A stretch of 58,711 nt of DNA, filler included, from Sphacelaria rigidula (Eukaryota), in the NCBI GenBank assembly GCA_964200075.2. It is 6 parts of 6 records of this genome, joined end to end, with 100 filler letters (N's around TTAATTAATTAA, not from the genome) between each part and the next. Parts side by side here need not be neighbours in the genome. Positions count along the whole stretch, not along the records: positions 29,409 to 39,109 come from CAXNAA020007934.1; 5 more parts are not named here. The stretch is one strand, 5' to 3'. The notes below the pieces were generated by a model. That model was given only the letters and a program-made list of their open reading frames with translations, was not told where the DNA came from and ran no database searches. Within the stretch, counting starts at the first letter, position 1. The number at the start of each line of letters is the position of its first letter. Position numbers and translations under genes: made by a program. Positions 21,178-56,405 of this stretch are shown in pieces.

Positions 21178-21989
21178 TTGTGGGGCTTCAGAGGTAGCTT
21201 GTTTCATTCAAGCTGTAGAGTTTCTCTCTCGGTCGGCTGCTGTTCACACAACAGTCTAACACAAGCTCACAGTTTTCTTTCAGACGTTGCATTTTCGGCC
21301 CCTGTTTCAACTTGATATCTGTGTAGACGATTCACCGGTGTAACCACGCGGGTAATTATACAGCTTCTTCGAGAGCTGTTTTCATTTTACAGTTTTGTCT
21401 GGTCTGACCACAGGCCATCGATGTCTCGCACTGTACCTAGCTCCGTCTCAGACATCGACGAGCGCACGCTCAGACGCTTGAGGCGCGCCCGCGTTCGCGA
21501 GCGCTCCCTCGCTACACAACAAACCCCTTCTCCACACACAGGCCAATTTGACGGGGCACGTCAATACCCCGGGATGGATGGACTCTCTTTCGTACCGTTG
21601 TACACGGTTCGAAAAAACCACAGCGTCACCAACCATATACAATCTGTACAACCGCCCTCCATTTCCTCCGCACACGTGCCCGTGGTATCCATGCCCGTTG
21701 AGTTCTTTTTGTTTCAGCCCGCTTGTTCTAGACACAGAGCTTTATTGTCCCCTTCACTCCAACACCCCTCCACATTCCTTTTCGGCTCGGCAAACACCGA
21801 GCCGACCGATGTGTGTTCCACTACCGGTCTCTGTTGGCAGACAGAGCGTGCGCGGGCTGTTTCAAATTCAACCCGCTGTCCAGACAATAATTTGTTTCTA
21901 ACACGGAATATTCCAACCAACTGTCCAATACTTTCGTCGACGTTTCCTCAATAAAGCAAATTTGCCAGCAGTACAAAGAAAGTTTGTCT

Positions 21990-23653
21990 CTACACACGCC
22001 CGACTGTACCAACACCGCAGCAGGTAACTCACCACCGTCAAACACTTCGTTGGCCGATTGAATTCCCGAACGGGCCTGGTGAAGTAGTAGTTTCGTGGGA
22101 CTATTTCGGCCCTTTTCCCCTGACGGATAGTAGAAATAAGTATATTTTGTTGTTTACGGATAGATTTAGTCGACATGCGGTGATGCACGCCGTCCCCCCC
22201 AGTAGGTATACCGCGGAAGGTACCGCCACCAACATTTCTGTCCACACGTACATCCCACTGTGGGGTGTGCCCAAACACTTACTGTCTGACAACGGCCCTC
22301 ATTTTTCGGGCAAACTTTCTGCCACCGTCAGTGACCTTTTGGGTGCCCATCGCATTTTTACTAGTTCATACCACCCTTCCACCAATGGTGGAACGGAACG
22401 AGTGAACCATACGATGGCACAGATGCTTGCTTCTGTAGCAAATTAGAGACAGGTGAACTGGGATCTGCACCTGCCCCTTGTCCAAATGAACTACAACAAT
22501 TCAGTCAGTGCCGCTACCGGATTGTCGCCGGATGAAATTCATATTGGACGCATGCCTAGGTTACCTTTAACGGTATTCGAACGCAAAAATACAGGTGGAC
22601 ATCAGAGTATCATTTGTCGGTTAGCAATCGTCTTCGTCTTGCATATGAAGTGGTACGAGAACAAAACCAAATCAATCTGGCCAAGGTGGCCAGGGCGAAC
22701 TCGATGTTGGATGATGTGGTGCATAAGCGCCCGGTGTGGAAGGTAGGCCAATGGGCATGGGTGTACAACGATGTGAAGACCATCAATCAAGGGGCTAGCT
22801 CGAAACCATAGTCTTTGGACAAAGTGTTGACGGCGAAACTATCCCTGAATTGGATTGTTCCTTGGGAAATTTTAGCTGTTGGTCCAAGCGCTACCGCACC
22901 CGACGAAAGCCCGGTGGGAGCGAAACTTTTGTATTTAGATTTTCGCACGGATGAACCTGGTTTGAAACCGAAATACAACGTCTCGATGTTACGATGCAAA
23001 CCGTGTATCCCCGCTCATGACTCCTCTGACATGCCCAAACAACTGCCGGTAGGGCTTAGCCAGTATGTGTTGACCAAGTATGCGATCAAAAACTCCGCCG
23101 TATCATATGATGATCGAGGATGCGGACGCAACCCTGGAACGCGTTGAGATAGATAGGATTTCGGGTCATCAACTGGTTCGCGGTCGTGGAGGTAAGATAG
23201 CGGTAATGTATCAAACACATTGGAAGGGTATCATGCGTGTCTCATGGGAGCGTGAAGTTGATTTGCGTCATTTTTCGTCGGGAAATATTGCTGTACTGGG
23301 TGGGAGATACCGTCCAACACCGCCCGTTGAATAAGAGATATCGGTCGATGCACAAGGGGGCTGCTGCTCCGGAACTGGCACGTGAGCACTCAGCGCGGTT
23401 TTTTGTGACAGAATATAGCCTTCTTTCGCGTTCACAATACATGCAGTGTTTTCACGGAAAACAATTGCCGAAAGGGGCGTACTTTTGGTATAAGGCCTTG
23501 GATTCGCTGTGGTGGTCGGGTATGATTCATTTGGTCGATCCTGCATCTGACCACTCCTACTTTATCCGTTTCCTTGATGACCCGAGCCCCCCTAAGATTC
23601 GCTTGGATGATGCGTACTACACCGAGGAGCCGACCGCTCGGAGGAGATCCTGA
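21990..23653 (+). pseudogene. Disrupted Gypsy integrase with C-terminal chromodomain-like and PWWP/Tudor-like segments
   Basis: WDYFGPFP..YILLFTDRFSRH..LLSDNGPHF..YHPSTNGGTERVNHTMAQML (DDE core), then EIDRISGHQLVRGRGGKIAVMYQTHWKG..SWERE and KGAYFWYKALDSLWWSGMI..YFIRFLDD. Several stops and frameshifts. Confidence 0.9.
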
Positions 23654-29308: not shown

Positions 29309-29408
29309 NNNNNNNNNNNNNNNNNNNNNNNNNNNNNNNNNNNNNNNNNNNNTTAATTAATTAANNNNNNNNNNNNNNNNNNNNNNNNNNNNNNNNNNNN
29401 NNNNNNNN
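29309..29408. other. Artificial scaffold linker
   Basis: N44-TTAATTAATTAA-N44. Confidence 0.99.
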
Positions 29409-31339
29409 GTCCCGAAACACCAAGCTGCGGAGAGATTCCGTCGTCTCTTCTTGCCTGTCGCCAACACGAAGATCGATTTCTCTCTGCCTCTCCTTTTGGA
29501 CAGGACGCTCCTCTGTGCGCTGAAAAATATGTCGTTAAAAAAATAGGGCATTGTTCCCGTCACTGCTACTACTGTTCTCTGTCAGACACATGCCAGGAAG
29601 GGCGGTGCTGCGGCAATAACAGATAGATCGAATTTGAACTAACGGGGTGTTTTTCATCGTTGATTTTCGCCGACCTCTCCCAACGGGGTGCCCGAGCAGA
29701 AGAGCAGAAGGGTCTGCCACACGCCAGTTGAGGGGGGTGTATGAGAGATCAAACACTTGTTGGGACCTTTTTGACATGCGAAGTGAAAAAAGATACCTAT
29801 GGTGGGGACCTAACTGTTGCAAGCGTGGCGCAAAGGCAATGTTCAGCACGCTGGTCACGTGAACAGCTCGGTACAGTATGAGTAGCTTCCCATACGTAAT
29901 AATTAATCCGATGTCAGGAGATTATGGGTCACGGCATTCAACTGCATCGAAGTCGCAAAACCTATGAAAGCTAGAGAGTGTGATCTTTATGACCTGCATG
30001 CACAAAATTGAAACGGTTCTGAAAACCGGAGGGAGGACGATCTCCCTATCCCCCAGCCAGGCATCGATGAACGAGGAAAGACTTTTACTGGTAGGTACAA
30101 CAAACAACGAGGCCCGGAGAAGTTTCTTTCCATCAAAATCTGTGTATTCCAAGCTGCAAAGGCGTTCCATGCGCATTGTTTTCTAATACAAACGGTAACT
30201 TGTCGATTTCTGTTCCGTTGTTCGAGCACTGTCCGATGCCGTTTCCGGAAAAGTTTCGTATTGCTGTTGGACAGTTTCTTCGGATGTTTGACTGGACCCG
30301 AAGCGGCTGTGTACTATATAGTGGATTCACGTTTGAAATCGGACAACACACCTTATCGCTTGTGACCTTGTGCGAAGGTCAGCGTTTCTGCGATCCCTGG
30401 CGGCTTGTTGGCGCTGTTGCTGCCGTTGACCAGTACTGGGTGAAGAATCTTGCTGCCGACCCATGAGAGGTATACGCTCCGCACGTAAACTCTCTCGGGG
30501 AAGAGGTGTAGACGTAGATGACCGACCGCCCACGGAGTGCCGGGAGTCACGACCACGAGGACCCCGAGGGCGATGAGTTCTGGTCCACCAGTGCAAGCAA
30601 CCGGAGTGGTGGCGAAGAACGATCTCTGCCCCCGGCGAGCACGGTCAGATGGAGTGCCACGTGATCGGGGTATGTCGCCGTTATTTCCATTGGAATTTCG
30701 CGCCACTGTTGATACAGCATTTAGAAGGAGCAGTACTAGTGCGATATGTGGCATACTCAGTACGACTGCGGGTGTGCGTTGAGCCCAGTGCAAGGGGTAC
30801 ACCGATGTGTATCAAAACACGTTTACTTTGTCGTGTAGGTACAGATTCGGGAGTTTCCTGGAATTTTGAAAAAGAGGTTCGAGGGAGTATACTAGATGCA
30901 TGTAGCCCCTGGGACGATAGGCCACAATTTCTGAACGCACAGGAAACGGTGACAAGAACACACGTGTGGATGTACTTGATGAAGGAGATCTCTAATTTTG
31001 TATGCCGTACGTTTATTTTGCTTCCGTGTTGACAGAGATCTACCATTCCGACGTAGTTTTGGTGCGCGTGTAACATCTCTCCGACCCACCGTCCATGCAG
31101 CGCCGGGCACAGCCGAAATAGCAGCCATGGGTCAAACTCAATTTAGGGAGGACGAAATTACCTGAAACTTCGTGCGGATCCTGATACTACCTACAGATGC
31201 GCAATGAAGTGGTTTCTAGCGTGAAGGACACTTGATATGAAAAAGTACAAGGGTTTCTCCCGTGGAATGACAAGGGATCACCACCACCAACACCACCATT
31301 TTTTTATTTTCCACACGGATACCTCTCTCATGTCCCTGA

Positions 31340-31470
31340 GAGAAAAACAAACAAAAAAGGAAGAACCTCCTGTGTTGACCTTCCTCCTGTATGACACCGG
31401 CTGATGCGCCCACATATACCGAAAGGTGTAGACTGGCACCCAGAATACATGGGACAACACACAATACACA
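31340..31470 (+). mobile_element. 5'-truncated copy of the SINE at 3240-3586
   Basis: CTCCTGTGTTGACCTTCCTCCTGT.TGAC.CCGGCTG.TGCGCCCACAT.TACCGAAAGGTGTAGACTGGC is the reverse complement of 3270-3345. Confidence 0.85.
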
Positions 31471-34400
31471 CTGTTGCCGAAAAACAAAAATGAGCTTCGG
31501 GGTTGGTCCGCACTCCGCGCAGACGAAACGTCGGCGCGAAGTGATGTGAACATTTTAGTGTTTATATGGTAGCCTCGAGGGTTCCGCCCTGCAGCATATC
31601 GCTTCGTGCTACAGACAATATACTGTCGACACCACCCCTCGGCCCCTAGCCGTTTACCGCCATTTTGGGAGTCCAACCCACGAACTACCTGACGAGATGA
31701 CCACACCGAATCCCCCCGTTTCAAACCTCCCTCGTATTGATGGCTGATACATATCCGCGACAACTGGCTGACAGATTCTAACGCAAACTATCATGTTTAC
31801 CGAAAAGGAAGGAGTTCGCGACGAAGATGGCGGCTGACAAAAACTTGCTCCTATTTGCAAAACTTCAACATGCGCCGACGATCCGATGGAAGATAATATC
31901 CACGAATATCTTGCGGTCGGAGACTCCAACGTACGACATACCCTGACCCCACAGATAAGAACTCCTTCACTCCAAGGGCGAAAAACGAAAAACGAAACAA
32001 CACATCCTCGAAGCCATGTCAAGTCAAGCGTGCCTCAAGTTGCATTCACCGGTACATGCATCCACCACCCAAAACAGCACTTCACATAAGAACACAGCTA
32101 CGAGAAGCGTAAAACAGCCTCAACAGGGGTCGAGAGATCAAACGCTTGTCACACTACAAGGGCGTGCGCAGTGCACGAGACAACCTCGAATAAGAAAGCA
32201 GTACAACACAGAAGACTCGCCGGTGGAGAACATAATGATACACATACCACTGCGCACCCGACCAACTCCTGTGTCAATGTTCAATGTTTTCACTCGCTCT
32301 TCTACCAAGACACCCTTCAAACCAGGGCAACATCCCTCATTTCAGCACTCAATTGCCTCGCGTGTAGCCTTGAGGCATGAGCGGCATCTGAGATAGGCTC
32401 GACAGGGCCCCGTACCCCGAGTCGTTGCCACCCAAAAGCTCCGCGCCTTCTTCTTCTCCGTAAGGTTCGTCCTGAACCAAAACGAACATAATCCGCGAAG
32501 AGAAAAAATAAAACAAAACACAAAAAACACGACCATCCGTTTTTGTACACAAGGTAAAAGAACATGGTGAAACACACAGAAATTAACACTACAGGAGACA
32601 GTAGCTCCTGGCCCATATCCAAGACTTGTTCTGTGAGATCAAGACATACACGTAATATCTCGTAAAATCTTGAATATTATCAGGGGGACAGAGGGGGGGG
32701 GGGGGTATTCATTTTTGTACAAACCTACAAAAACAGTGCCTTCGGAACAGCACACGCCAGAGTAAAAGACATGCCCAATCAGATCCAACCCGATCAGATC
32801 TGCTTTTGGCTTTCACACACCATACCAAGGAGATTACAGCGCTGGAATTCTGGTCGCGAAAAAAGCTTGAAAGAGGGCTGATTTTTTGCGCCTTGTATAA
32901 ATTCTTTTCATCAGAACAACGCAACGGACGGACTCGTAGGTGGGGATGCGTCGAGAGACCACGGGTGGAGGGGTCGCGAGTCGGCGTTGAGTGACGCTCT
33001 GCCTCCGATACCGTGCCGGTTGTCATCCTGGCCGAAACGGGCAACAGGATGGCCGAGCACCACGAAACGCAAAAACACAAGAAAAAAAAACAGAAAAATA
33101 TGTAGTCGGAGTGCGTAAGCAGAATCAACGGAAAACATTAAGATGGAAATGGAGCCTGTTCCGGCGTAAAAAATGTAATTTCAGTATCTCAATCAACTCT
33201 TCGGTGGAAAGTTCACCCCGGCAGTCGAGATCGAAATTGTGTGAAGAAAACTAACGGTGTGATGATAGATAAGTGTGACGCGTACGGAGGGTATTTCCCA
33301 CGTTCGAGTATTTTCAAACATAGTACTCAGTCATACTTACGTTGTATGGAGTGTTGCGGTTTGAGTATCGCAACACAAAATCTGGGAGAGGGATGACAAA
33401 CCCTGGAAAATAGATGACACTATCAAAAAGTGCGCGTACAGTATCGACTTCTGCGTCCCTTGCAATAGATTATATTTTCTATATTGTACGCAGTAAACTT
33501 TTTGACGGTTATCTCGTGTCCAGGGTGTGGAGAGTAAATACCCCGTTATTTACTCTATCCGACATCCCCTTGGTAACTTTTACCTCCTTCCCGGACAAAA
33601 TCTTTGCAATTCCGAAGATTAGGCAGAAGGGGAGACTCCAACATCACACAAAATGAGGCCACTGGGCGCACTCAAATATCCAAAGATGAAGTTGGTCCAC
33701 GTATTGAAAGTACGGTTCACGATGCCGAGCAGGCATATGTGTACACTATTTTCCAAATATTGGGGGTTGACCGCGAGTGAGAAAAATCCGATGGATTGGT
33801 GAACAAAAACAGGTGTAGCAGCTGAGTATTATAGTTGCGTGAAAACTACGCAACTCTCCAGAAATAGAGCGGAAGAAAAACATCAGTTCGCCTGACCAGT
33901 CGTCTACGGACGGTGAATCACTCCTGGAGAAAATGCAGCGTCTTTATAGGGTGGTTTCCGGCCGATGATAAATTTCTTTCTTCAAGGCAAGAAAGGCTAG
34001 GCTGTGTGTGTATGCGTGGACTGGAATGGACTGGGATATTCCACCCACTGTATACGTGAGTGCCACCAATTGGTCACGTCAACGGGAGCCAAGTCCCCAC
34101 TTCGAAGTCAGTTCGCATGTCATGAAAATATACGAAAGAAAAACACACCAGGGTGATTGAGGACACTTAGATTTACTGAGATCCCCCCCAGATCCGGGCA
34201 AATCTGTCTGTGCATGTGCATATACGCTTTCCAGGACATTTCCACATGCCGATCAAATGCATTCGTTGGACCGATGGACTGTTTTTTCCTCAAAGTATTG
34301 ATGCCACTATTTGAGGACTGCAGAAAGCTGGGGTTCCCACTTCAATGCAAGTTCTTGTAAGCAAAAGTTGACCGCCTTCAGCGCTCATCTTAACGAACTC

Positions 34401-34737
34401 GAAGAAATGTAGGATGTTGATTCGCCGCGACACCACACCTGGGGATGACCGATCAACATGCTGTTCTTCGACGCATGATTTGTTACATAGCTCCTTCACG
34501 GATGATCAAGATTGAGCAGTACTCGGAGAAGACCGCACGCAGTCAAATTTCTGGGATCTCATGCCACTTGCATCTTTTAGCACGACACACCCACCATACG
34601 TCACTCCAGCAATATCGTCCCACGAGTTCCCATCCGTCTTCACACCGTGACAACAACAACTTGTGTGAGTGCAGCTCAATAAAAAGATATATTACTAGCA
34701 TATTTTCACCATGCGGAAAAACGAATCAACACATGAC

Positions 34738-34978
34738 GTTTTCGTGAAATTGAGAGTAGCTTTGGCCATTCGCTCCAACTTTGCCATTTTTTCATTTCGT
34801 GTGTGGTTACAGCTACAGGTCGATATCCTACTCGGGGATATCAAGGGCGTCAGGGGCAAGATACTACAGAAGGAAAATCGGGCCTCGCGGAGAGGTATTT
34901 CGGAACTGAAACGATTCATTCACTAATTGACCGCTTTTCACTCTTAATCGTATCCTCTGCTCTCAATCTCACGAGAAC
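34738..34978. mobile_element. MITE with ~22-bp TIRs
   Basis: GTTTTCGTGAAATTGAGAGTAG ... CTGCTCTCAATCTCACGAGAAC; second copy at 39821-40118. Confidence 0.8.
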
Positions 34979-36051
34979 AGTTACATTTGGATGATAATTT
35001 TATTTGGTGTGATACGTTCCGGTCCGACACTTCCCATCCTTTGACTCATAACACGCACCCGCAGAACGATGCCTCTCGCCCTCTGCCTCTTCTCGTAGTA
35101 CAACCCGCCGCACGAAAGCAAGATCGCGATGGCGTACAGCAATGCTGACAAAACGGCAAGCGGTCAGACAGCACCACACGAAGGGAGCAGAACACCGCGG
35201 ACACGATGCGGGTAAAACGGTGCGGAGCATTACACCGCGATGGGGCAATTTTGATGCTGTACTGTAGCTGGTGAGCACGAGACGATGTCAGTATTCTTCA
35301 CGTAGACAACAAATACGAAGACAAAACGATGACACTTTTTTCACGGCTTCATTAGATTGCTGAAATATCCATGTGCAGGAAGGAAGGGAGGGAGGGAGCA
35401 CGCACCGAACAAAATTTCACGGTTAGGACGAATAACGTCGTGATTCGACTCATATTCATTATTCCACTGAATAAATCATACGATTCGTACACCATCTGTA
35501 ATTATGCAGGTTTTGAGCTCGTGACTCGTGCAGTACATGTCAAAGCTGTCTGTTTCCTATCTCTGTTCATAGGGGGTACGTCATGGGCACATATTCATCC
35601 CCTGTACTGCATATGGAATGATTCGATTATACATGCCACCCACTCTTAATTTCATGAGGCGTGAATGGCATATACAACTTGCCATGTGTGACTCGTTCGA
35701 GGTGAGGGCCCGTATATGTTTCCCACCTTCGGATTAATGCGGGGCGAAGAGTCGGCACTTCCCTCCCATCTGTAATGCGCGCAAGATGCCTGCACTTCGG
35801 ATGTTATCCGCCCTCGGGTTTATGCGGTACCAACAGTCGGCATATGGTTGAATCCTCTCATTTCATGGGGAGTCAACTCGTATGAACTCTGATTCGTCCG
35901 AACCGTGCAAAATTCTCGACAGGAAAAAAAACAGGAATACAGGATACACCTATCCTGTTGGGGGTCATCAACACATACGCAACACTCAGAAGTGGCACAC
36001 GTTCACGAGTCGGCCATGACATGTTCTTTTTGCCATGAAAATGTTTCTGGG

Positions 36052-36605
36052 GACCCGTCCCCGAAGCGCTTGCAGTTCTGAGAGCTAACGACGCCGTGCC
36101 TCGACAGCAAGCTTTCAGGTAACATTCCCCTAGTCGTGCGCTCAGGTAATGTCTCCAGGCGGCTTCTAGAGCTTGTATACGTCGTCACCGGGGAAAACCA
36201 CGTGAGCGCGCGATTAGGGGAAAGTTACCTGAAAGCCTGTTCTTGTTCAGGCACACCGTTCGCAAAAGCTTGCAGCGCCTCAAGAATCGGTCTGCACAAT
36301 CATCACGGCGGCACATAAATAAAAATGACAACGTTTCTATAACCCGAGCCTTCTGAAACGCATCTGCAGACTCGTTCCCGGAACGTTGGTAGCTCTCAGT
36401 GGAAGGTGTGCCTCGACGACGACAAGCTTTCTGGTAACTTTCCCCTGGTCGCGCACTCAGGTGATGTACGCCACGTATATAAGCGCTAGAAGTCGTCGAG
36501 AGACGTAACATGAGCGCGCGACTTCTATAGGGGAAAGATACTTAACAGCGTGTGGCTGTTCAGGCACACCATTAGGTAAGAGCTTGCAGCGCCTCAGAAA
36601 TCAAT
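36052..36605. pseudogene. Four degenerate LRR exon cassettes, family A (+36052-36118, -36229-36291, +36370-36433, -36542-36605)
   Basis: Translations resemble GPxPEALxxLxELxxxCLDxNKLSG. Each +/- pair converges on an intron with inverted donor arms GTAAC(A/T)TTCCCCT..TCG.GC.CTCA ... TGAGCGCGCGA..AGGGGAAAGTTAC. Frameshifted. Confidence 0.7.
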
Positions 36606-36768
36606 CTGTACAAGCATCACAGCGGAAAATGAATCAAAACGAACGACGCTTTTAAAAGCAAGCCTCCCACGACATGTGATGGCACACTCGCCAACGCGTG
36701 AGCAACCACGTGTGCAGAAATGGGAAGCATCATGCAGTTTAGTCCAAGCCCATTTCACGACCATGCAG

Positions 36769-36840
36769 GCGCAATTCCCGACTCCCTAGGACAGCTGGGG
36801 AACCTGCAAGAACTTTACCTTCACAACAACGACCCACGCG
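36769..36840 (+). CDS. Intact 72-nt phase 1-1 LRR exon (GAIPDSLGQLGNLQELYLHNNDPRG), ROCO/LRR-receptor type
   Basis: CCATGCAG acceptor, 24-aa plant-type LRR consensus, donor G|GCGAGG (GC donor). Confidence 0.8.
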
Positions 36841-37033
36841 GCGAGGCTCGTGAGAAAATCAGTATGCACGGGAGCAGGGGCAAGATTCGACCTCGACGGA
36901 TTAACGTAGACTGGGGTGCCGTTAATGTCCTTCAGTGACTCAAGAATATCAACGGCACCCCAGTCTATGTTAATCCGTGGAGGTCGAATCTTGCCCCTGC
37001 TCCCGTGCACATTGATTTCCCCACGAGACTCGC
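36841..37033. repeat. Palindromic intron segment between convergent LRR exons
   Basis: ~96-bp arms, centre ~36937; both ends start with a GCGAG(G/T) donor. Confidence 0.95.
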
Positions 37034-37105
37034 CGCGTGGGTCGTTGTTGTGGAGGTGAACCCCTCCCAGGTTGCCAAGCTACGCTAGAGACTCTGGGAA
37101 CTCGC
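37034..37105 (-). pseudogene. Antisense 72-nt LRR exon (GEFPESLA*LGNLGGVHLHNNDPRG)
   Basis: Exactly 72 nt, donor G|GCGAGT, acceptor mutated to CAC, internal TAG. Confidence 0.85.
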
Positions 37106-37251
37106 GTGCATGGTGGTGGAGATGGGCGCGAATATTCGACAATGTTCCCATCACTTCCAGATCATGTGTCCCGCCCACGCGTGCGGGAGAAGCACGCCGT
37201 AAGATCTACAGAGATCGACACGTTCCTTCCCAATTCCCCAAAACCGTGCGG

Positions 37252-37666
37252 GCAAAATCCCAGCGTCGCTAGTATAGCTCAGCAAAAGCTGCAAACAACT
37301 TCATCTCCACAGCAGTGAACTACTCGGCGAGTCTCATGGAAAAACTTCGGAAGACTCGCCGCGTAGGCCGTTGTTGTGGAGGTGAAGCCCTTCCAGGTAT
37401 TGCCCAGCCCACATGGACACGCCGGAATTTCGACCTGCATGGGATTGAAAATGGGCGTGGACATATTCGATGATGTTTCCCACCGTTTCCATGTGTCCCG
37501 GTCACGCGTGGGTGAAGAGCATGACCTAAAAGCGTTTCCGATACAAGATGTACCATTGTCGATACTGAGCGGTTTGAGACCCGCCGCGTGGGTCTTTGTT
37601 TCCGGGGTGAAGCACTTGCAGGTTCCTGCAGGTTGTCCAACCACCCTGGCCACGCCGGGATTTCCC
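37252..37666. pseudogene. Three damaged LRR exon cassettes (+37252-37326, -37360-37434, -37585-~37666)
   Basis: GKIPASLV*LSK.., EIPACPCGLGN..LHLHNNGLRG and GEIPAWPGWLDNLQ..LHPGNKDPRG. The palindromic intron of the first pair is collapsed to 33 bp (37327-37359). Confidence 0.8.
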
Positions 37667-37868
37667 CACATGGTTTTGAAAATGGGCGTGGACATGTTCG
37701 ATTTTTCCCCTATTGTTTTTATACACGTGTCCGTCTATGCGCGGGAGATAAGCATGTTTCAGAAGCTTTTGCAAAGCAACACCTACGGAGCTTGATACCC
37801 TGGAAGAGAGAAAAAAAAAAAAACGTTCAACGGTGCCATCCACTTTCTCATTCCCCAAAACCATGCAG

Positions 37869-37943
37869 GCAAAATTGTGGCGTCGCTAGGAGGACAGCTG
37901 GGCAACCTGAAAGAGCTCCACCTCCGCAACAACGGCCTGCGCG
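37869..37943 (+). CDS. Open 75-nt phase 1-1 LRR exon (GKIVASLGGQLGNLKELHLRNNGLRG)
   Basis: CCATGCAG acceptor, G|GCGAGT donor, one extra in-frame codon. Confidence 0.75.
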
Positions 37944-38137
37944 GCGAGTCTCGTGATAAAATCAGTGTGTACGGTAGCAGGGACAAGACTCGCCCTCTCG
38001 TACCGAATGATGTTATTGGATTCCTTTCATGTCTTTCAGTAACCGAGAGACATCAACAACATCACACTCGACATTACCCGGTAGAGGTCTCATCTTGCCC
38101 CTGCTTCCACACACGCCGACTTCTGCATGGGACTTGC

Positions 38138-39039
38138 CGCGTCGGTCATTGTTGTGGAGGCGAAGCCCTTTCAGGTTGTCTAGCTACCCCAACCATGCAT
38201 GGTCAAGGAAATGTGCGTCGGCATATTCGACGATGTTTCCTACCGTTTCCAGATCATGTGTCCCGCCCACGGGTTGACGGGAAGCATGTTGTCAAAGCGT
38301 TTCCGAGACAAAATCCACCACTTTCGATATTCTCGACCAAAACAAAAAAGACACATCATTCAACGGTGCGGGCCACGGACAAACTTGCCTGTCCATTCTC
38401 GCTACCATGCAGGCGAAATTCCCGAGTCCCTAGGACAGCTCAGCAACCTGGGGAAGCTACACACCTCCGCAACAATGATCTACGCGGCGAGTCTCGTGAG
38501 AAAGTTAGCGTGTGTGGGTGCAGGGGCGAGATTCGACCTGCATCGAACAACGTTGACCTGGGTCCCCTTCATGTCCCCTAGTTAACTAAGGGACATCAAG
38601 GGGATCCAGGTTGACGTTATTCGGTACAGGTCGAATCTCGCCCCTGCACCAACACACGCTGACTTTCTCACGAGACTCGCAGCGTAGGTCATCGTTGTGG
38701 AGGTGAAGCTCTCCCAGGTTGCCCAGCTACCCTGGTGACGTGGGAGTTTCCCGGCATGGCTTCGGAAATCGGCGTGGACATATTCGATGATGTTTCCCAC
38801 CGTCTTCAGATGAGTGTTTTGCCAACGCGTTGGCGAGAATTATATGCCCGAAGCATTTGTAAGACAATATCTACGGAGATTGATACTCTGGAAAAAAGCA
38901 AGACAAGTCATTCAACGGCGCCACCCACAGACAAACGTCCTTTCTCATTCCTCAAAAACATGCCGACGAAATCCCGGCGTCGCTAGGACAGCTCAGCAAC
39001 CTGGGGAAGCTACACACCTCCGCAACAATGATCTACGCG
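38138..39039. pseudogene. Four further LRR exon cassettes (-38138-~38195, +38413-38486, -38681-38751, +38966-39039)
   Basis: LG*LDNLKGLRLHNNDRRG; GEIPESLGQLSNLGKLH(fs)LRNNDLRG; ..G*LGNLGELHLHNDDLR; EIPASLGQLSNLGKLH(fs)LRNNDLRG. Palindromic intron 38487-38680 centred on TAGTTAACTA. Confidence 0.85.
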
Positions 39040-39109
39040 GCGAGTCTCGTGAGAAAGTTAGCGTGTGTGGGTGCAGGGGCGAGATTCGACCTGCATCGAA
39101 CAACGTTGA

Positions 39110-39209
39110 NNNNNNNNNNNNNNNNNNNNNNNNNNNNNNNNNNNNNNNNNNNNTTAATTAATTAANNNNNNNNNNNNNNNNNNNNNNNNNNNNNNNNNNN
39201 NNNNNNNNN
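39110..39209. other. Artificial scaffold linker
   Basis: N44-TTAATTAATTAA-N44. Confidence 0.99.
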
Positions 39210-39661
39210 CACATGGATTTTTTGCCCACTGATTGTTCACTTTTGGGACGTTTGAGCCACTTTTTGACCCCCAAACAGGGAAAATCGCCAGAACACGTCT
39301 TGGACACTTTGCATCACCCCACAGAGAGGAGCCTGGCCCACTTTTCAGATTCACTTTGCTCCAAGGTTTCGAGAGCGGCCGCTGAACAATAATCCGTGTG
39401 CAATAAAATCTACGGCGATCTCCACAGGTTGTTGGACAAACTGACAGGGGTCGGCAAGCACAGGTTGTTGCACACGGATGATTGTTCAGCGGCCAGTCTC
39501 GAAACCTCGGAGCCAAGCGAATCTGAAAAGTAGGCTAGGCTCCTCTCTGTGGGATGATTTAAAGTGTCCAAGACGTATGTTGGCGATTCTCCCTGTTCGG
39601 GGGTCAAAAGGTGGCTCAAACGTCTCAAAAGTGAACAATCCGTGGGCCAAAAATCTGTGTG
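39210..39661. mobile_element. Foldback/MITE with ~190-bp inverted arms
   Basis: CACATGGATTTTTTGCCCAC...CCGTGTGCAA pairs with TTGCACACGG...GTGGGCCAAAAATCTGTGTG. Confidence 0.85.
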
Positions 39662-39679: not shown

Positions 39680-40378
39680 TGAACAAAAAGAATGAGTTTC
39701 AACTAAAAAAAAAGCAGTGCTTTCCCTGACCTAACGTCACGACACATGACTTTCATATGGACGACTTCATCCCTCCCGACCTCCCAAAATCTATTTCGGA
39801 GGGTTTCCAGCTTTAACAACGTTTTCGTGAGATTGAGAGTAGAGCGCTGATTGAGAGTGGCTTCGGTAATTCGCTTCAACCTAGCCAATTTCTCATCCCA
39901 TGTGTGCTTTTTTTTGCCTCCATCACTAGCGTGTACTCACAGCTACAGACAATACACGTCGATATCCTACTCAGCGATATCAAGGGCCTCAGTGACAAGC
40001 TACTACAGAAAGCATATCGGGTCTTGTGGAGGGGCATTTCGGAACTGAAACGACTAATTAACTAAATGATCGCTTTTCACTCTCAATCGTATCCTCCACT
40101 CTAAATCTCACGAAAAACTTGTTCTTTCTGTTTCCCCGAAGGGTATGTGCGAAAGCACGATTTTTGCACCACCAAAAAGCGTCCCTTTTCTCACCCCGAA
40201 ATCGAGGCAAAATGTTATTTCGCGCATACCCTTTGGGGGAACGGAAGGCTAGAAATCCCCCGAAATAGTTTTAGAGAGGTCGGGAGCGATGAGGTGGTCC
40301 ATATATATGAAAGTCATTTGCCATGACTTTAGGTCAGGGAAAGCACTGCTTTTGAGTTGAAACTCATCTTTTTGTTCA
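39680..40378. mobile_element. Foldback/MITE (~130-bp arms) with nested MITE 39821-40118 and a small IR at 40131-40240
   Basis: TGAACAAAAAGAATGAGTTTCAACT...AAGCAGTGCTTTCCCTGACCTAA pairs with TTAGGTCAGGGAAAGCACTGCTT...AGTTGAAACTCATCTTTTTGTTCA. Confidence 0.85.
39821..40118. mobile_element. MITE, second copy of the 34738-34978 family
   Basis: TIR GTTTTCGTGAGATTGAGAGTAGAG / CTCCACTCTAAATCTCACGAAAAAC; shared internal GTCGATATCCTACTC..GATATCAAGGGC. Confidence 0.85.
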
Positions 40379-41057: not shown

Positions 41058-42011
41058 ACAACCACACCTATAACGGTATCGAAATAATGCTTCGCTACCG
41101 AAGGTTATGACAGCATAGCATGCTATATTGATCATCATAACCCTTTGGACACTTCAAATATATATGGAGTAGGAGATGTTTGTGTCGAAGAGTAATTTCG
41201 CCTGTTCAGGCATGCGGTCAGACTCGTTGGTCTTTCTCTCTAGTCTCCTTACAAGTCATGGTCTTTGGGAGCGACATTGTCTACCGCGTTGTTGGTGGCA
41301 GTGTAGCATTTTTATGCCTTACAAGCACACAACGGAAGTGCAACACTTGAATCTGACCAGATTCACCTAGCGAGCTTTGCCACCCCTACCTCCTAGTATG
41401 TTGTCGTCCGAAGGCAGGGCTCAACAACGTTTGCACCCGAGGGTTAGAGCGGACACAAATGCGGGTTAATCGCGCTCGTTACACGCAAATCTTCCAGCCA
41501 TCATCACAAGCTGACAAGCCTTTCACCCAACCACAACACACAACAGGCACATCTACAGTCCCTCTACAGTGGAACCGTAAGGGTCAAGGGCAACGATCGA
41601 CGTATCAGTCGAACTCAATCCATCTCACCAGCTCATGCGGGACGTCAAATGGCAGCACCGAATGCACGTGAGTGTGGAATCCTGTACTCATTCAGCTCGT
41701 TCGCCCTCGCGTTTAATCATCCCTTGTGCTAATTTCAAGTATCAGAGTAAATCTAACACAACTCTCACACTGCGATGATGGATGTCTTGAACGCCACCGT
41801 GCAACGCCACTGTGGGTGCGGGTATGGCTACAGCTTACAAAGCAAAAGCGTAGCCTGCTGACAGTGGTGAGGTTCCCACAATTCCCTGTTGTCACTCACA
41901 CGCTCTTCCGCGCGCACTCTCTCTCACTTGTCTCGACGTGTATCGCGATGTGTCGGTGACTGTTGCAAGAAACAGCCGGCGGAGAAGAAGGTGAAGACAC
42001 GGAAACAGCTG

Positions 42012-43930
42012 ATGATGCGCGGCGGGGCACCAAAAAAAGCAAGAGACGACGACCCAACCTGCCACTCTTCCACGGAGGAAGATTCTGATCAGCTCATGCA
42101 TCACCCGTGGTGTGATAACCAGAGGCGTGGCGTCCCTGGTCCTGCCTCTAATTCTCGAGAGAGTGGCCCTTCATCCCCGTTTTCTCCTACCGGAGGCTCT
42201 TTACAGCTTGTTTGCGGCAGTGGAGACCGTCCACTATCAAACATCAAGGCACGACGAGTTGCCATAGCCCGTGGTACAGCACCAGTAACACCAGCAGCAC
42301 TAGCAGCACAATCAACACCACCAGGCTCTCTTACAATGGAAGAAATGTCGAAGGGCACATTAACGGAAGATATGCTCCGCGCGGTCGCTGGAACACAACG
42401 GCTAGAAACGGTGACGCACCTCGAGCTTGTGATCGACAGCGCGGAAACCCCGAGTGTGGCAGGTGTCTGGCCATCGGTACCCTCGCTGCACACTCTAGTA
42501 CTGAATGGTAGCAGGCTCATGAGCTTTCGGGACTTGGGCGTTGGCCTTCGGAACTTGCATACGCTTTCCCTGGAGTATTCGGGTATCGAAGATTTGGATG
42601 GTATCGGAGTTTTGTCCGAACTGAAGGAGCTGCGCCTGGCAAACAACAATGTGTCCGATGTAACCCCCCTTGCTTGTCACAGCCATCTACAAGTCTTGGA
42701 TCTCGAGCAGAATCGCATTGGAAATGTGAAGGAACTGGAGATTATGGGCACAATATCACTACTGTATAGGTACGTGTGTATACCTTGTGGTGTCGCGCAG
42801 GAATCGGATCAGGAAAGTTGTGTCGTCGAGAGAGAGTCCATCAGCTTGATCATAGCAGGTCAGGATATATCTAGTCTATGGTTTGTACGAATGCCGTGTG
42901 GACTACCGGTCGTGTACCAAGATCCCGGAGTCCTCAACGTTTTTCTTTCCCTTGAGTATTTTCCTCGTTGCTCATGAGGCGGACCTACAGCAGCACTTCA
43001 TACTTTGGGCTTGAACATTCTTCCTTTCCCGCGGGTAATATGACAAAACATTTAACATTCATCTCACCTCTTCGTTCCGGCTTCGACATTGATGCTCAAG
43101 TATCTCAGTAGAGTGCATCAGGCATGTGCCCCTGGCGGTGTATTTGGGTAAGACTTGGGCCTTCCCCCCTCTCTCCCTCCCTTTCATGACTGCATACCCA
43201 AAGCTTGGGGGGAAATAAATCACCCAACAATAAAGAGGTCGATTTGAAAGAGACTGACGACACAAAAACAAAATGCCCTGAATATATAATTTGTCAATTC
43301 CCCTCGAACCATCAATCTCTCATTTCTCTCACGCACAGCTTGAACTTGAATCAGAATCCGCTGATGAGTTCACTGGGTAAACTTCCGGGAGGACAGGGCC
43401 GGGGGGTTGTCCATCGCCTCATACCTCAACTGCAGGTCCTCGGTGGTACATCTCTCTCCGTCCTCGAGATAGACATTGTCGACGCGGATGCGTTATTGCG
43501 AGACACCAACGCCTTGGCCTGGGAGGGTGCATCTGGAGCACGGACCGCCTGGGAAGAGAAAAACGGTGAAAACGTGACAGTCCCGTGCGCTGGGAGAAAT
43601 GGGTGTCTGGAGAAGAAAGAGGCCGCGAAAACTACGTTGTCCCCGGTTCTTTCGAATTCGCCAGACAGGGGGCGGCGGCGACTAAAGCAGAGAGAGCGGA
43701 ATGGTGGCGAGAATGTTCTTAAAGCCTCGCCGGATCGAGGGATCGTGCACTGGGACAGTGACTTGACACAGGGTGGTTGTCCCGCATTTTCTGGGAAAGC
43801 GAGGTAAACTAATACTTGACTAGAAAGTAAGGTGATGTTCACACATAAATATGGGCCAGGTCAGTTGTTGCAAGTATACGCTCACAGCATTCGTTGATCA
43901 CCATATGAGTTCGTTTGTGCAAGTATGCAT

Positions 43931-43999
<69 letters not shown>

Positions 44000-46094
44000 C
44001 GTGCGCGCGCGCGTCCTGATGGCTTATGTTGTAGGTACTGAAGTACAGAAGTTGAACGGTCGGGTCATAGAGCATGGGACGGTGCACATGCTATAAATCG
44101 CACTTTTAATCGGAATGAAGTGTTTCTCGTCCAACGATAACCTTGAGTTTCAGATGACTGTGGTTATGAAGTGTTGTGAAATGAAGAAGAGGGGTGTTTA
44201 ACGGGACGTACGGCACCAAGATTCGCAATCTCGAGGCACTTTTGCCGCAGAATCTCAGATAACCTTGGCTTTCACTGGATCCCATGTTGTCTTTGAACCC
44301 CACGCGATCGCATTGACAGTTCAGCAATCAGGCGGTATAAAGTGGGTGGGGATAATGATGCGCGACAGAGACTACCAAGCCCGCAGGGCGTCTTGGACAC
44401 GTTGAACCTCGCCAAGCAAATGGAGCTAGGGCTACAACACAGGCGAGAACAGAGCAAATATAATCAGCACACGGCACGGTAAAGAGGAGTACTAATTCGT
44501 TAAAGTTACTATCGACGGGGTCGTTTGCGAGATATCCCAGCCAGAGCGGACGCGGCCACGTAAAAGACAGGGGCAGCTGTTTGCACCATAACCGCTGTTG
44601 CCAGTGACGGTGATCACGCCTCCATACGCGACGGATGAATCACGTGTTCACTCGACTCCTCCGCATCCGTCGCACGAACTTTCGATACACAACATCAATA
44701 CGGCAGGCAGAACCAACTAGAAGATCGAGTTTTGGAATGGCAACGAGAAATAAGCTCTGAATCTCTCCCGCAGGGGGAGCAAATAATTCCCCCGCCGTAC
44801 CCTTCCACAAACGTCAGCGAATCCTCCGAATCAAGCCCGCAAGTGAGGGCAGTCACAGATATCAGTTTGTTGGGGAGCACCAGAAATTATCTTCAACACG
44901 AACTAGAGGAAGGACGAACAATAGATATGCGAAAATGCTGGAGTGGAACTTGGGCCTCGACTTCGACGGATGGAGAATTGGCCAACGCGGAGAAGGAGGA
45001 AGAGAGGGGGAGGGGTGACGGTTCTGTTATTGGTATACGAAACGATCCCAACGCCGGAGACTTTCCCCTGTCGAGTAGGCCATGGACGACGGGGCACGTG
45101 GTGGGTGGTAGTTCGGGGTTGACATCACCACTATCGTTGCCGGTGTCACCGCGGAGCGGGCGTACGATCTCATCTTCGAAACCGGTGATGGAAGCGACAC
45201 GTGACATTCACGATGGCAGCCCGGCAAAAAATGAGGCTGGCACCGTTAACAACGAGAAAAAGGTGAAAGGGGAGAACCTAGGGACAGGGGTGAGAAAAGG
45301 GGGATATCTGCAACAACGCCGAACCCAATGCCGGCGACCTCAGACCGCGGTAGAGCTCGGTCGACGGCGGCATAGAGGCCACAGCGGCGCTCTCATTGTC
45401 GGAGAAGACGGGTCGACTTTGAGCGCGGGTTGGCTACATGTTTGGGAGTCGCTGCAGACGGCGGGTCTGCATGAGACGAACGTGTCCCAGGAAGCAAAAT
45501 CACCGCCTACATCTTCCCGCGATTATTCTCCCTCAGTCAGATCGCCCATCACTACGTCTACTAGTGCGTGTCCCGTCACCGGCCGCGTGCAAGGCAGAAG
45601 AGTCGATTTCCGGAGCCAAAGACAAACGCGGCAAATAGTCAGGACGAGGTCCGCGGGTCTGCGAAGAGGGGACAGCATCAGTAATGCCGTCGCTGCCATT
45701 CAACCGAGCAGTGGGTCATCTACGGAAGCAGACGACGACGAGCAATGCAGCGTTACTTCCGAGGAAAACGATAACGGTCGAGATGAGATGAAGAAAAGAG
45801 CGGCGGCGTTTTTGAATGTTAAACCAAGGACACCATCCGACGACCGCGGCGCTGGTCCCGATTCTCGCAACAACGCCGCCACTAGGCGACCTATCATGGC
45901 ATGTGGTCGTCCAGTTGAAATGGCTCAAAGCGCACATCGAGATGCACAGCCTGAAGTTCATCGGCGCGAAGTACCTCGAGCTGCAGGGGTGGAGGAGGGT
46001 ATAATCTTTTCGGCAAAAGGAGCACACAGGCGAACACGGAAAGGAAATCGCGGGAGGACAACGGCATCTCGTCGGTCGCTAGCAACGATGGACG

Positions 46095-48910: not shown

Positions 48911-49010
48911 NNNNNNNNNNNNNNNNNNNNNNNNNNNNNNNNNNNNNNNNNNNNTTAATTAATTAANNNNNNNNNNNNNNNNNNNNNNNNNNNNNNNNNN
49001 NNNNNNNNNN
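48911..49010. other. Artificial scaffold linker
   Basis: N44-TTAATTAATTAA-N44. Confidence 0.99.
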
Positions 49011-53100: not shown

Positions 53101-53370
53101 TGACGCCAGCCAGAAGAAGAACTGGTGGATCACTGCTTTTGAGAGACTCCCCAGTCTCACTGGCTTCAGTTACTATTTGTCAATCTTTACAACATCTCAT
53201 TATCAGGAGGAGTACTCTTCCAGGCACCAACCTCCTAGACACGCAGAAAATCATCCCCGTGTCCCCGATCATTATCCACAATTCTCCCAGAATCCTCCAG
53301 AATCCCCGTGCTCCCAGTCATTATCCAGATCATCGCTACCAACTCAATGTAACGGCGTATTTTCCTCACA
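50200..53370 (-). mobile_element. 3'-truncated Ty3/Gypsy element: probable 5' LTR, gag, protease and RT N-half
   Basis: Gag with degenerate knuckle CHRFDQVGHYARDC; protease remnant VRAMWDS..ILLGLPTFQDLG; RT motifs WSSPALAVSKKDSFRLVSD, RVPQGVLNA and WVDDVLFF. Stops and frameshifts present. Confidence 0.9.
53099..53370 (-). repeat. Probable 5' LTR (272 bp) of the 50200-53370 element
   Basis: Minus strand begins TGTGA and ends TCACA (terminal IR). It starts exactly where the neighbouring integrase ORF breaks off. No second copy in the window. Confidence 0.55.
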
Positions 53371-56300: not shown

Positions 56301-56405
56301 AAGTACGAATACGTGTCTTATGGGTGAAGCATCGAAAGCGACAGAGTTGTCTAAGTACATGATGAGGTGTTCGAGGCCGTCGGTGACTCGTTGCATCAGA
56401 CGTTG

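Follow-up and report, generated by a model that had tools for sequence, protein, structure and literature searches.

Background

The array of mirrored LRR exon copies at 36750-39109 raises the question of whether the two arms of one palindrome are alike because sequence was exchanged between them after the repeat units had diverged. It lies in the window, the whole stretch of 58,711 nucleotides of Sphacelaria rigidula DNA (filler included) that was analysed. The initial annotation, made from the sequence alone, held that the arms are homogenised within each exon pair, by repeated inversion or by arm-to-arm conversion.

In the ROCO-type loci of Ectocarpus one LRR is encoded per 72-nt exon with the pattern GxxPxxLxxxxxLxxLxLxxNxLx, according to the available part of Zambounis et al. 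2012 (PMC3341825). The available part of PMC11378527 gives the exon phase in Ectocarpus and Saccharina, with bases 3-71 encoding 23 residues and a split glycine codon bridging the exons, and also records LRR-only loci beside the ROCO loci. The mechanism that puts LRR exons on the non-coding strand of brown-algal candidate immune-receptor loci was not deeply investigated as of 2012 (Zambounis et al., PMC3341825), and no treatment of it was found in the later brown-algal literature searched. A search combining palindrome, inverted repeat or gene conversion with brown-algal LRR exons found no description of the present layout. A wording check found no palindrome, inverted or gene conversion in the text of PMC3341825 and no palindrome, inverted or reverse in that of PMC11378527. 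A brown-algal genomics preprint names gene conversion for LHCX genes only, palindromes serve only as a miRNA search device in an Ectocarpus AGO paper, and LRR is unmentioned in an Ectocarpus miRNA paper.

Results

Layout of the array

The array consists of units of about 550 bp (about 545-553 bp), and exon copies alternate with palindromes along it, as revealed by sequence reading, inverted-repeat search and alignment (Table 1). A full unit combines an LRR exon of the 72-nt type and a downstream intron-like arm of about 97 nt with the mirror image of both. The ten exon copies are divided equally between the strands, five plus and five minus (A_R, B_R, C_R, D_R and E_R). Palindromes A and E were found where the initial annotation had placed them, exactly between the facing exon 3' ends. 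The inverted arms extend over 181 nt at 82% identity with 1 nt between them in A (36756-36936 / 36938-37118) and over 122 nt at 89% identity with 0 nt between them in E (38462-38583 / 38584-38705). The sample is small: three palindromes are complete, and one of these (D) is without homogenisation.

The claim that all head-to-head spacers keep one orientation was borne out by BLAST between the spacers, in which 12 of 12 matches were direct and none inverted. Tandem Repeats Finder reported no arrays on 29409-39109 because the units are too diverged. For tandem units with homologous one-way spacers, tandem amplification fits better than fold-back or MITE-type insertion. The array reaches the end of its sequence piece, the N linker beginning at 39110.

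Table 1. Positions of exon copies, palindromes, spacers and related features in the window
Feature	Position	Strand	Description
Upstream tail-to-tail pairs P1 (centre ~36166) and P2 (centre ~36490)	36040-36625	.	second LRR-like sequence LxxLxLxxNxLSGxxP
Exon A_L	36769-36840	+	72 nt, AG acceptor, open frame GAIPDSLGQLGNLQELYLHNNDPR
Palindrome A arms	36841-37033	.	left 36841-36937, right 36938-37033
Exon A_R	37034-37105	-	72 nt, acceptor AG lost (AC), in-frame TAG; inactivated
Head-to-head spacer A_R/B_L	37126-37242	+	direct-repeat families, inter-spacer BLAST
Pair B	37252-37434	.	exons tail to tail, ~33 nt apart
Exon B_L	37252-37326	+	75 nt, in-frame TAG, acceptor lost
Exon B_R	37360-37434	-	75 nt, open, motif disrupted; boundaries read by hand from alignment
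Exon C_R	37585-37665	-	81 nt, degenerate, unpaired; ends in GACCCACGCG like pair A
Palindrome D	37869-38194	.	arms 37944-38040 / 38041-38137; arms not homogenised
Exon D_L	37869-37943	+	75 nt, open
Exon D_R	38138-38194	-	57 nt, in-frame stop
Exon E_L	38413-38486	+	74 nt, 2-nt insertion giving frameshift; inactivated
Palindrome E arms	38487-38680	.	left 38487-38583, right 38584-38680
Exon E_R	38681-38751	-	71 nt, frameshift, acceptor lost; inactivated
Unit F, left half only	38966-39109	+	exon F_L 38966-39039 (74 nt, frameshift, acceptor lost) and arm 39040-39109, truncated by piece end
Other head-to-head spacers	37461-37559, 37691-37849, 38226-38394, 38776-38947	one shared orientation	BLAST, direct-repeat families

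Exon copies and their affiliation

A_L is the sole fully intact type-I-like LRR exon of the array. It fits the type I exon definition in its length, its sequence GAIPDSLGQLGNLQELYLHNNDPR and the 23 residues of pattern GxxPxxLxxxxxLxxLxLxxNxLx given by bases 3-71. Its phase is such that the 'GC' after the CAG acceptor completes a G codon, 23 codons follow and the last G opens the next codon. The other nine copies (57-81 nt) are still recognisable as the same exon, and manual reading of the copies and their alignment showed 7 of the 10 to be damaged by a stop codon, a frameshift or loss of the AG acceptor. The sequence after the exon begins with GCGAG(T/G), which we take to be a GC-type donor, in 8 of the 10 copies, with GCAAG in D_R and with GCGGG in C_R. 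The distance between B_L and B_R indicates that the central arms of pair B were deleted, and C_R is without its left partner and arms, which are deleted. The ending GACCCACGCG, put forward earlier as a variant of pair A, is present in both A exons and is not private to them, since it also ends the lone C_R.

The 261-aa read-through ORF at 37796-38578 matched no Pfam family. Of 65 ORFs of 60 aa or more in the upstream 7.3 kb (29409-36760), none reached a Pfam cut-off and no ROC-COR domain was seen; downstream, the sequence is cut at 39109. All 16 organism-named matches of the window's retroelement ORF (RT/RNase H), among 120 listed, belong to Ectocarpus sp., at an identity of just 46-58%. The LRR ORF at 41871-42974 falls in a protein atlas among LRRC56-like clusters, which are without taxon information. 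A protein search with the A_L ORF gave 5 matches among 12 candidates, generic LRR proteins (bacterial-type, plant and green-algal) that are uninformative for membership; one of them is an LRR-Roc-COR-TIR protein of a different LRR type. A 20-nt arm motif gave a single match (L001) in a metagenome scan, covering those 20 bases only, and was set aside as a chance match.

Arm identity within and between units

The arms of one palindrome agree at 86 of 97 positions in A and 87 of 98 in E, compared with 63-74 of 95-98 between units. The K2P distance between arms is 0.105 in A, 0.136 in E and 0.444 in D, and 0.27-0.47 between units. The D arms (64 of 95 alike) are no nearer to each other than arms from different units. 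Homogenisation, claimed for every pair, is thus confined to A and E; D does not show it, B is without arms and C without a left partner. The strings described as shared were recovered in both arms of each of the two pairs, with one correction: GACCTG and CGAA are separated by three bases instead of two, the middle one being shared.

Some copies from different units are also close. E_L and F_L are identical over 71 of 71 arm positions and 40 of 40 positions of the exon 3' half, and form a direct repeat of 96% over 151 nt. A_L and D_L agree at 83% over 107 nt and at 74 of 95 positions in the arm. A_L being almost as close to D_L as to A_R, the by-unit effect in A is modest against D_L and clear against E.

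In A and E alike, the region of high identity starts near the centre and stops within the exon. The top-scoring shared fragment in A pairs 36823-36921 with 36953-37051, and the 17 columns nearest the centre hold 4-5 mismatches vs 7 in the 99-column tract. In E the by-unit sites span 38476 to 38577, mirrored onto 38691-38590. Transitions account for 13 of 19 arm mismatches in each of A and E.

Grouping by unit or by side

In the A/E quartet, the exon 3' end and the arm hold 17 sites that group by unit, none by side and none crossed. In the outer exon half and flank 3 sites group by side vs 1 by unit. The A/D quartet gave 5 sites by unit and 1 by side in the arm. The upstream pairs P1 and P2, used as an internal control for by-side vs by-unit grouping, gave 9 sites by side, 1 by unit and 2 crossed, and P1_R and P2_R are alike at 97 of 128 positions vs 77 of 124 for P1_L and P1_R.

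Trees of the inner region join A_L with A_R (support 92/94; 95/94 in a second analysis) and E_L with E_R (92/91; 93/92). A tree with the left arms as one clade was rejected (p-AU 3.95e-5, lnL difference 35.5). D_L and D_R are not sisters in the tree, although a clade of the two could not be rejected (p = 0.21). Resolution is poor in the outer-region tree: no branch is starred, and a single clade of left copies appears in 16% of bootstrap trees. A GENECONV-like fragment test was significant for pair A (p = 0.0004, 5000 permutations) and not for pair E (p = 0.09).

The tree comparison proposed in the initial annotation thus came out by unit for A and E, with left-with-left grouping rejected, and the proposed conversion-tract comparison supported A alone. 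That an arm is closest to its own partner is true of A and E by the 17 quartet sites, and fails for the D arms and for E_L, whose closest relative is F_L. Exchange after the divergence of the units is accordingly backed for A and E by trees, quartets and AU test and is not general, in view of D and of the grouping of P1 and P2 by side.

Reads and assembly

Contigs of sequencing runs were compared with the array. Palindrome A is spanned with 0 differences by X1 record 1 (35900-37183) and X3 record 11 (36604-37183), palindrome D is spanned by run contigs (records 4 and 13, 37457-38459), and the centre of E is crossed by X1 record 5 (38430-38800) and X3 record 14 (38511-38656). Contig depth over A, D and E equals flank depth. 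X3 comes from a separate study and has its own SNPs elsewhere (20 differing sites in 3.2 kb), and therefore represents a different individual or strain. Neither X4 nor X5 covers the centre of A or of E; runs X5-X9 may be RNA. At 38469, a CpG site, X3 shows a single case of G>A that gives E_L the E_R state.

An assembly artefact, in which fold-back chimeric reads or consensus collapse made or homogenised the arms, is hardly credible as a general explanation. Since separately built contigs from two studies cover the palindromes at flank depth, A, D and E are not assembly products, and the collapse that the initial annotation had named as a refutation is itself contradicted. The arm substitutions, at 11-18% of sites, are also unlike the near-identity left by chimeras or collapse. 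The array does run to the end of its piece, and F_L is identical to E_L from 38999 on, at which point most read depth takes another path in three runs; only two contigs, one of 43 nt from X1 and one of low depth from X4, follow the path of the window past 38999. The artefact explanation, largely refuted for A, D and E, survives for the F_L junction at 38999 only. The 5' part of F_L resembles B_L and D_L, and this mosaic means either that copying between non-partner copies also happens or that the mosaic was assembled. Loose ends at 37154/37185 and 38999, together with raised depth, indicate further copies of the exons elsewhere in the genome.

Discussion

Proposed history

We consider the locus, with a probability of roughly two in three, to be a decayed array of type I LRR exons of the brown-algal kind in which A and E were later copied arm to arm, non-reciprocally. 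In such a history, an exon with about 20 nt of upstream flank and about 97 nt of downstream intron would have undergone inverted duplication, producing a spacer-less palindrome whose arms, about 190 nt long, meet tail to tail. Together with a one-way spacer (about 545-553 bp in all), the entire left/right unit would then have been amplified in tandem at least six times, and its copies would have decayed as they acquired stop codons and frameshifts and lost acceptors or central sequence. Within A and within E, one arm would have overwritten the other from near the centre out to the 3' third of the exon, and pair D would retain the old left/right differences. The likely mechanism would be templated repair between inverted arms: a break in the hairpin-prone centre could have led to gene conversion, or replication could have switched template within the molecule, as in quasi-palindrome correction.

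The order of these events is reconstructed from the spacers and the outer parts. All spacers are direct, grouping by side is seen weakly in the outer parts, and the control pairs P1 and P2 also group by side. The left/right unit would therefore predate the amplification and would have been amplified whole, and later arm-to-arm copying is then needed. Repeated inversion, one of the two homogenising processes of the initial annotation, had to be dropped: inversion is reciprocal and merely swaps the inner arm segments, so that non-reciprocal copying is required. The arms still differ (K2P as above), and the last exchange was therefore old and is not ongoing. One event per pair fits as well as the 'repeated' exchange. 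Had there been no earlier exchange, the arms would by the inferred date have diverged too far for ordinary homologous recombination, so one has to suppose either that they had exchanged sequence repeatedly before or that the mechanism tolerates low homology.

The direction of copying was read from comparison with D. Among the 17 by-unit sites D_L carries the A state and D_R the E state at 6, and the reverse at 1, and the best tree splits A_L, A_R and D_L from E_L, E_R and D_R (support 60/38). This comparison suggests that A may have been overwritten with left-type and E with right-type sequence. The six sites polarisable for GC-biased conversion (3 AT>GC, 0 GC>AT, 3 neutral) are too few to use.

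Alternative explanations

The arms could also have become alike through re-palindromisation, in which the inner parts of A and E would be younger palindromes newly formed when one half underwent fold-back inverted duplication, or through ectopic replacement from an LRR locus with already-alike arms. The nearly equal divergence of the A and E arms (K2P 0.105 and 0.136) and the high identity from near the centre to inside the exon in both would agree with this. So would the exon copies elsewhere in the genome, the mosaic F_L, 100% identical to E_L from 38999, and the intergenic inserts in Ectocarpus LRR domains described in the available part of Zambounis et al. (PMC3341825). A fold-back that includes the centre, however, does not predict the excess of mismatches in the 17 central columns of A, and the six sites at which D_L equals A and D_R equals E fit overwriting of existing left/right arms, which leaves this explanation rather unlikely.

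Selection for a hairpin, either an RNA stem (intron structure or small-RNA precursor) or a DNA cruciform, would keep the arms alike by compensatory change instead of copying. The predicted hairpins are very stable, single-stranded DNA folding giving -156 kcal/mol for A (z = -22) and -149 for E (z = -24) with 0 of 100 shuffles as stable, and reshuffled LRR exons are predicted targets of candidate Ectocarpus miRNAs (PMC3341825). In Rfam there were three matches, the best of them to the miRNA precursor MIR6201 at 36893-36981 (37.2 bits vs a gathering score of 69); all were sub-threshold, so that no family is present at threshold. Against such selection, 11% of arm positions are mismatched and the mismatches show no strand bias to G:U-compatible changes (A 5 vs 8; E 8 vs 5). 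The stem is lost in the sister units B and C and decayed to 67% in D, and 17 independent compensated pairs are far less likely than one copying event. Hairpin selection is accordingly regarded as quite improbable. Under the preferred history of non-reciprocal copying, the homogenisation looks like a neutral by-product of the structure with no function.

Meaning of the locus

The locus provides a testable anatomy, in which reverse exons are mirror arms with a centre about 97 nt into the downstream intron and some arms copied onto each other carry along the last third of the exon. If this layout holds in working ROCO genes, 'shuffling' would come down to two processes, inverted duplication and templated repair, and could be studied with genome and small-RNA data of the ordinary kind. 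A bolder idea, that brown-algal LRR 'exon shuffling' operates through tail-to-tail palindromes as its working units, with a copy-choice reservoir and small-RNA stems, is judged doubtful. If true, non-coding-strand exons would be the product of a fold-back inverted duplication whose centre lies in the downstream intron, and arm-to-arm copying would shift variants between coding- and reverse-strand exons, which would be the copy-choice reservoir. Transcripts would fold into 100-180-bp stems yielding small RNAs against LRR exons, and the early candidate miRNAs aimed at reshuffled LRR exons would thereby be explained.

Comparison with known systems

The brown-algal LRR 'shuffling' loci, in the available part of PMC3341825, resemble the array in having related LRR exons, some intact and some inactivated, on the non-coding strand and many signs of recombination. 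The array differs in that its reverse exons belong to the mirror arms of palindromes that are regular, tail to tail and amplified as units, and its exons are mostly dead.

Sex-chromosome palindromes (primate Y P1-P8, X, willow and poplar), as portrayed in the available parts of the sources, are like A and E in that their own arms are closest and evolve in concert by non-reciprocal transfer. The arms of those palindromes exceed 10 kb and have a spacer between them, whereas the present arms are about 190 nt long with a spacer of 0-1 nt. Their arm identity is above 99% vs 82-89% here, which falls short of near-identity. In contrast to them, the array shows no sign of gene-preserving selection, and its exchange is patchy (2 of 3 pairs) and old.

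In quasi-palindrome correction, known from bacteria and yeast, short spacer-less imperfect inverted repeats are perfected by arm copying, and high homology is unneeded. The known events are single mutations or short patches in reporter genes, whereas the tracts reconstructed here would be about 100 nt long and fixed in the genome.

The lamprey VLR cassettes, an analogy drawn in the available part of PMC3341825, likewise have LRR modules in both orientations round the locus and templated copying. VLR assembly is somatic and directed and yields a working receptor, whereas the array holds mostly pseudo-exons and nothing showing somatic change. The process seen here is one already known, at small scale and on mostly dead exons: it is concerted evolution in small palindromes and not a new system.

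Exon module and unit geometry

The region 36750-39109 contains one short coding-like module n=10 times, with five copies per strand, arranged as successive tail-to-tail pairs of LRR exons (units A to F). The order in a unit is a plus-strand exon (suffix _L), an intron-like arm of ~97 nt, the mirror image of that arm and a minus-strand exon (suffix _R). The features are summarized in the table. Bases 3-71 of the best copy, A_L, encode 23 residues with a split glycine codon at either end. A_L is the 'type I LRR exon' of Ectocarpus ROCO genes, GxxPxxLxxxxxLxxLxLxxNxLx in the main text of PMC3341825, and it also fits the LRR exon of '72 bp, phase 2, nucleotides 3 to 71' described from four brown algae in the text of PMC11378527. 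At 19 ROCO loci the former article (2012) describes LRR exons on the non-coding strand, some intact and some inactivated; the novelty of the present locus is its regular L/R geometry. The spacers between units keep a single orientation, as had been noted initially (12/12 BLAST matches direct, 0 inverted), and successive units among D, E and F start 543-553 bp apart.

Features of the array and of its surroundings in the window
Feature	Position	Strand	Description
Exon A_L	36769-36840	+	best copy; exactly 72 nt; after CAG acceptor; translation GAIPDSLGQLGNLQELYLHNNDPR
Unit A	centre 36937		full palindrome
Unit B			two exons, central arms lost; ~33 nt between exons
Unit C			only the R half kept; deletion of arms and left half
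Unit D	centre 38040/38041		full palindrome
Unit E	centre 38583/38584		full palindrome
Unit F			left half only; cut by piece end
P1, P2	36040-36625		two pairs, also tail-to-tail, of another LRR-like module (...CLNKNRLSGNFPL...), then GT-type donor-like sites
Gypsy-type retroelement fragments	53238-56517; 21316-22443	-; +	RT/RNase H, integrase zinc-binding and core domains
Open frame, 368 aa	41871-42974	+	LRR_4/LRR_8 repeats; LRRC56 / dynein-light-chain kind (Pfam, protein atlas matches)
(TG)n microsatellite	43926-44005		~40 units
Linkers	9704-9803; 19507-19606; 29309-29408; 39110-39209; 48911-49010		N44-TTAATTAATTAA-N44, six-frame stop linker

Inactivation was scored as in Zambounis et al. from copy length, acceptor bases and translation, B_R being read from the alignment. 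In-frame stops are present in A_R, B_L and D_R and frameshifts in E_L (74 nt), E_R (71 nt) and F_L (74 nt), while the AG acceptor is lost in six copies (A_R, B_L, C_R, D_R, E_R, F_L); in total 7/10 copies are hit by at least one of these three defects. The single intact copy is A_L. In D_L (75 nt) the frame is open and the motif recognisable, in B_R (75 nt) the frame is open and the motif disrupted, and the exon copies of the array are mostly dead. The exon frame continues open for ~30 codons into the left arms at 36841-36935 (GEAREKISMHGSRGKIRP...), 37944-38050 (GESRDKISVYGSRDKTRP...) and 38487-38580 (GESREKVSVCGCRGEIRP...); a family search with these extensions in A, D and E returned no match, and they carry no sign of coding.

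Relationships of the arms

The palindromes A and E are far beyond chance. The arms of A measure 181 nt with 82% identity and 1 nt between them, those of E 122 nt with 89% identity and 0 nt between them, and at DNA fold z-scores of -22 (A) and -24 (E) 0/100 shuffles folded equally well. The strings that the initial annotation quoted as shared occur in each of the two arms of A and likewise of E, with a one-base slip in the spacing. It had further claimed that the arms are homogenised within each exon pair. Intron-arm identity is 86/97 for A_L/A_R and 87/98 for E_L/E_R, against 63-74 of 95-98 for arms of different units, whereas D_L and D_R share only 64/95. Homogenisation is real and statistically solid in A and E, and D lacks it. 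That the arms of one unit are closest to each other holds for A and E against the other units in general, but E_L equals F_L, the left arm that follows it (arm 71/71, exon 3' half 40/40), and over 107 nt A_L has 83% identity to D_L. The exon end GACCCACGCG is common to both exons of A, as claimed, but also ends C_R.

The tree proposed as a check clustered the copies by unit in A and E. For the inner region (exon 3' half and arm) A_L joined A_R (92/94) and E_R joined E_L and F_L (92/91), and the left copies formed one clade in 0/200 bootstrap trees. AU tests on six rows, columns 102-219, whose tree supports the A pair at 95/94 and the E pair at 93/92, rejected 'left arms together' (p = 3.95e-5, lnL difference 35.5) and 'A_L with E_L' (p = 3e-6). 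The grouping of D_L with D_R is absent from the best tree, yet survives the AU test (p = 0.21). The A/E quartet sites of the arm were 15 by unit (joining L and R of one unit), 0 by side (joining same-side arms) and 0 crossed. The exon 3' half gave 2 by unit, and the upstream flank with the exon 5' half 3 by side and 1 by unit. The switch from by side to by unit lies between columns 58 and 108, inside the exon, at 36792-36830 in A_L and 38436-38476 in E_L. Mapping of tract ends by a GENECONV-like permutation, also proposed earlier, gave a significant fragment for A (36823-36921 / 37051-36953, p = 0.0004 in 5000 permutations, uncorrected for 15 pairs) and a non-significant one for E (38489-38577 / 38678-38590, p = 0.09). 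The outer-region tree was weakly resolved, with 0 starred branches and the left copies as one clade in 16% of bootstrap trees. The control pairs P1 and P2 gave 9 sites by side, 1 by unit and 2 crossed; almost armless between their exons, they act like plain tandem duplicates.

History of the units and alternative explanations

The L/R unit is older than its amplification, because the R exons share an upstream flank of their own that is not homologous to the L flank and the spacers have no inverted match to one another. Under plain divergence each arm should then be nearest to the same-side arms. D conforms to this expectation and A and E do not, which argues for copying from arm to arm in both A and E after the units had separated. 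The initial annotation was right in this core, a post-divergence exchange between arms, and too general in its title. Inversion, which it had also offered as homogeniser, is reciprocal and merely swaps the inner segments, leaving the pattern unexplained. At 6/17 by-unit sites D_L has the A state and D_R the E state, with 1 site reversed, and the best tree holds a weak split {A_L, A_R, D_L} / {E_L, E_R, D_R} (60/38). This polarity suggests that the right arm of A was overwritten with left-type sequence and the left arm of E with right-type sequence; with seven sites behind it, this is no more than a suggestion. The K2P distances fit one history (0.27-0.47 between units, 0.444 within D, 0.105 within A, 0.136 within E). 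By these distances the last exchange is old, roughly one third of the age of the amplification. One or several exchanges per pair are both compatible with the data; a single exchange would have met arms that were ~25% diverged already, which argues for repeated earlier exchange or a low-homology mechanism. Hairpin-primed template switching, a mechanism that needs little homology, is a candidate here.

A unit replaced as a whole by a donor palindrome from elsewhere would give a similar pattern, and the genome does contain such exons at other places (loose ends, raised depth); such ectopic replacement, or a fresh fold-back duplication, is considered rather improbable. Selection that keeps an RNA or DNA hairpin is unlikely, as the arm mismatches are mostly transitions (13/19 in A, 13/19 in E) and show no skew between strands towards G:U pairs (A 5 vs 8, E 8 vs 5), the stem is lost in sister units and the hairpin matches in Rfam were sub-threshold only. 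Assembly artefact was analysed by comparing separately built contigs from four runs over 35900-39109, run X3 being from another study. Palindrome A is crossed with 0 differences by X1 record 1 (35900-37183) and X3 record 11 (36604-37183), D by records 4 and 13 (37457-38459; X3 with 8 differences of its own there), and the centre of E by X1 record 5 (38430-38800) and X3 record 14 (38511-38656). Contig depths over the palindromes equal the flank depths, and substitutions between arms at 11-18% of sites are not expected from a chimeric read or consensus collapse, so that an artefact in the arms of A, D and E is largely excluded.

The sole doubtful spot of the array is the F_L junction. Beyond 38999 most X1, X3 and X5 depth takes another sequence, and support for the path of the window comes from an X1 contig of 43 nt and a single X4 contig of low depth. 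F_L is a mosaic (38948-39109 vs 38395-38556), like B_L and D_L in its upstream flank and exon 5' half and 100% equal to E_L from 38999; either a mis-join or direct-repeat conversion of very recent date would account for this. One low-depth X4 contig links 37453 to 38771, omitting 1317 bases (units C, D and E) with 33 letters common to both sides; it could be a deletion allele, generated when R-flank repeats recombined, or an artefact of the k-mer graph. X3 shows 20 single-site differences across 35900-39109, among them 38469 G>A, a CpG site, which gives E_L its partner-arm state. An X3 contig at 36324 has a 14-nt insertion (ATGACAACGTTTCT) that copies the 14 bases before it and makes a small tandem-duplication polymorphism.

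Surroundings of the array

The window consists of six pieces, each ~9.7 kb long, with linkers at the joins, and its DNA is eukaryotic. The array lies entirely inside the piece 29409-39109 and runs into its cut at 39109; features are not readable across linker joins. The inverted repeat I16 of the repeat search (39110-39209) is linker only and no genuine palindrome. No ROC or COR domain was found in the 7.3 kb upstream of the array, where 0/65 ORFs reached the Pfam cut-off. In the next piece, a 197-nt inverted repeat (88% identity, 58-nt spacer) within 39210-39661 and nested inverted repeats inside 39710-40353 (39710-39814 with 40245-40353) look like MITE or fold-back elements with no relation to the LRR exons. 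The 368-aa open frame is likewise unrelated to the array. Among the 120 matches listed for the RT/RNase H ORF, 16/16 organism-named relatives were Ectocarpus sp. (46-58% identity). Public sequencing runs that contain this DNA bear a coded organism label or 'algae metagenome'.

Comparison with known systems

Literature searches returned no account of a tail-to-tail palindromic LRR exon layout, and the words palindrome and inverted are absent from the text of PMC3341825 and PMC11378527 (2024). In the article text of Zambounis et al. (PMC3341825) the mechanism 'was not investigated in depth', transposable elements are seemingly not involved, and the reshuffled LRR exons are predicted miRNA targets. 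Large sex-chromosome palindromes, as generally described, show gene conversion between their arms, and the LRR locus acts like a miniature of them, some fifty times smaller; their hallmark of >99% arm identity, however, is one that it fails. By its exon architecture and its exons on both strands, features common to the brown-algal LRR 'exon shuffling' loci in the texts of PMC3341825 and PMC11378527, the array belongs with those loci, its ROCO status and a brown-algal host being putative. The locus is a fresh variation on known things, in mostly dead exons, and its value is as a lead to the origin of reverse-strand LRR exons in brown algae.
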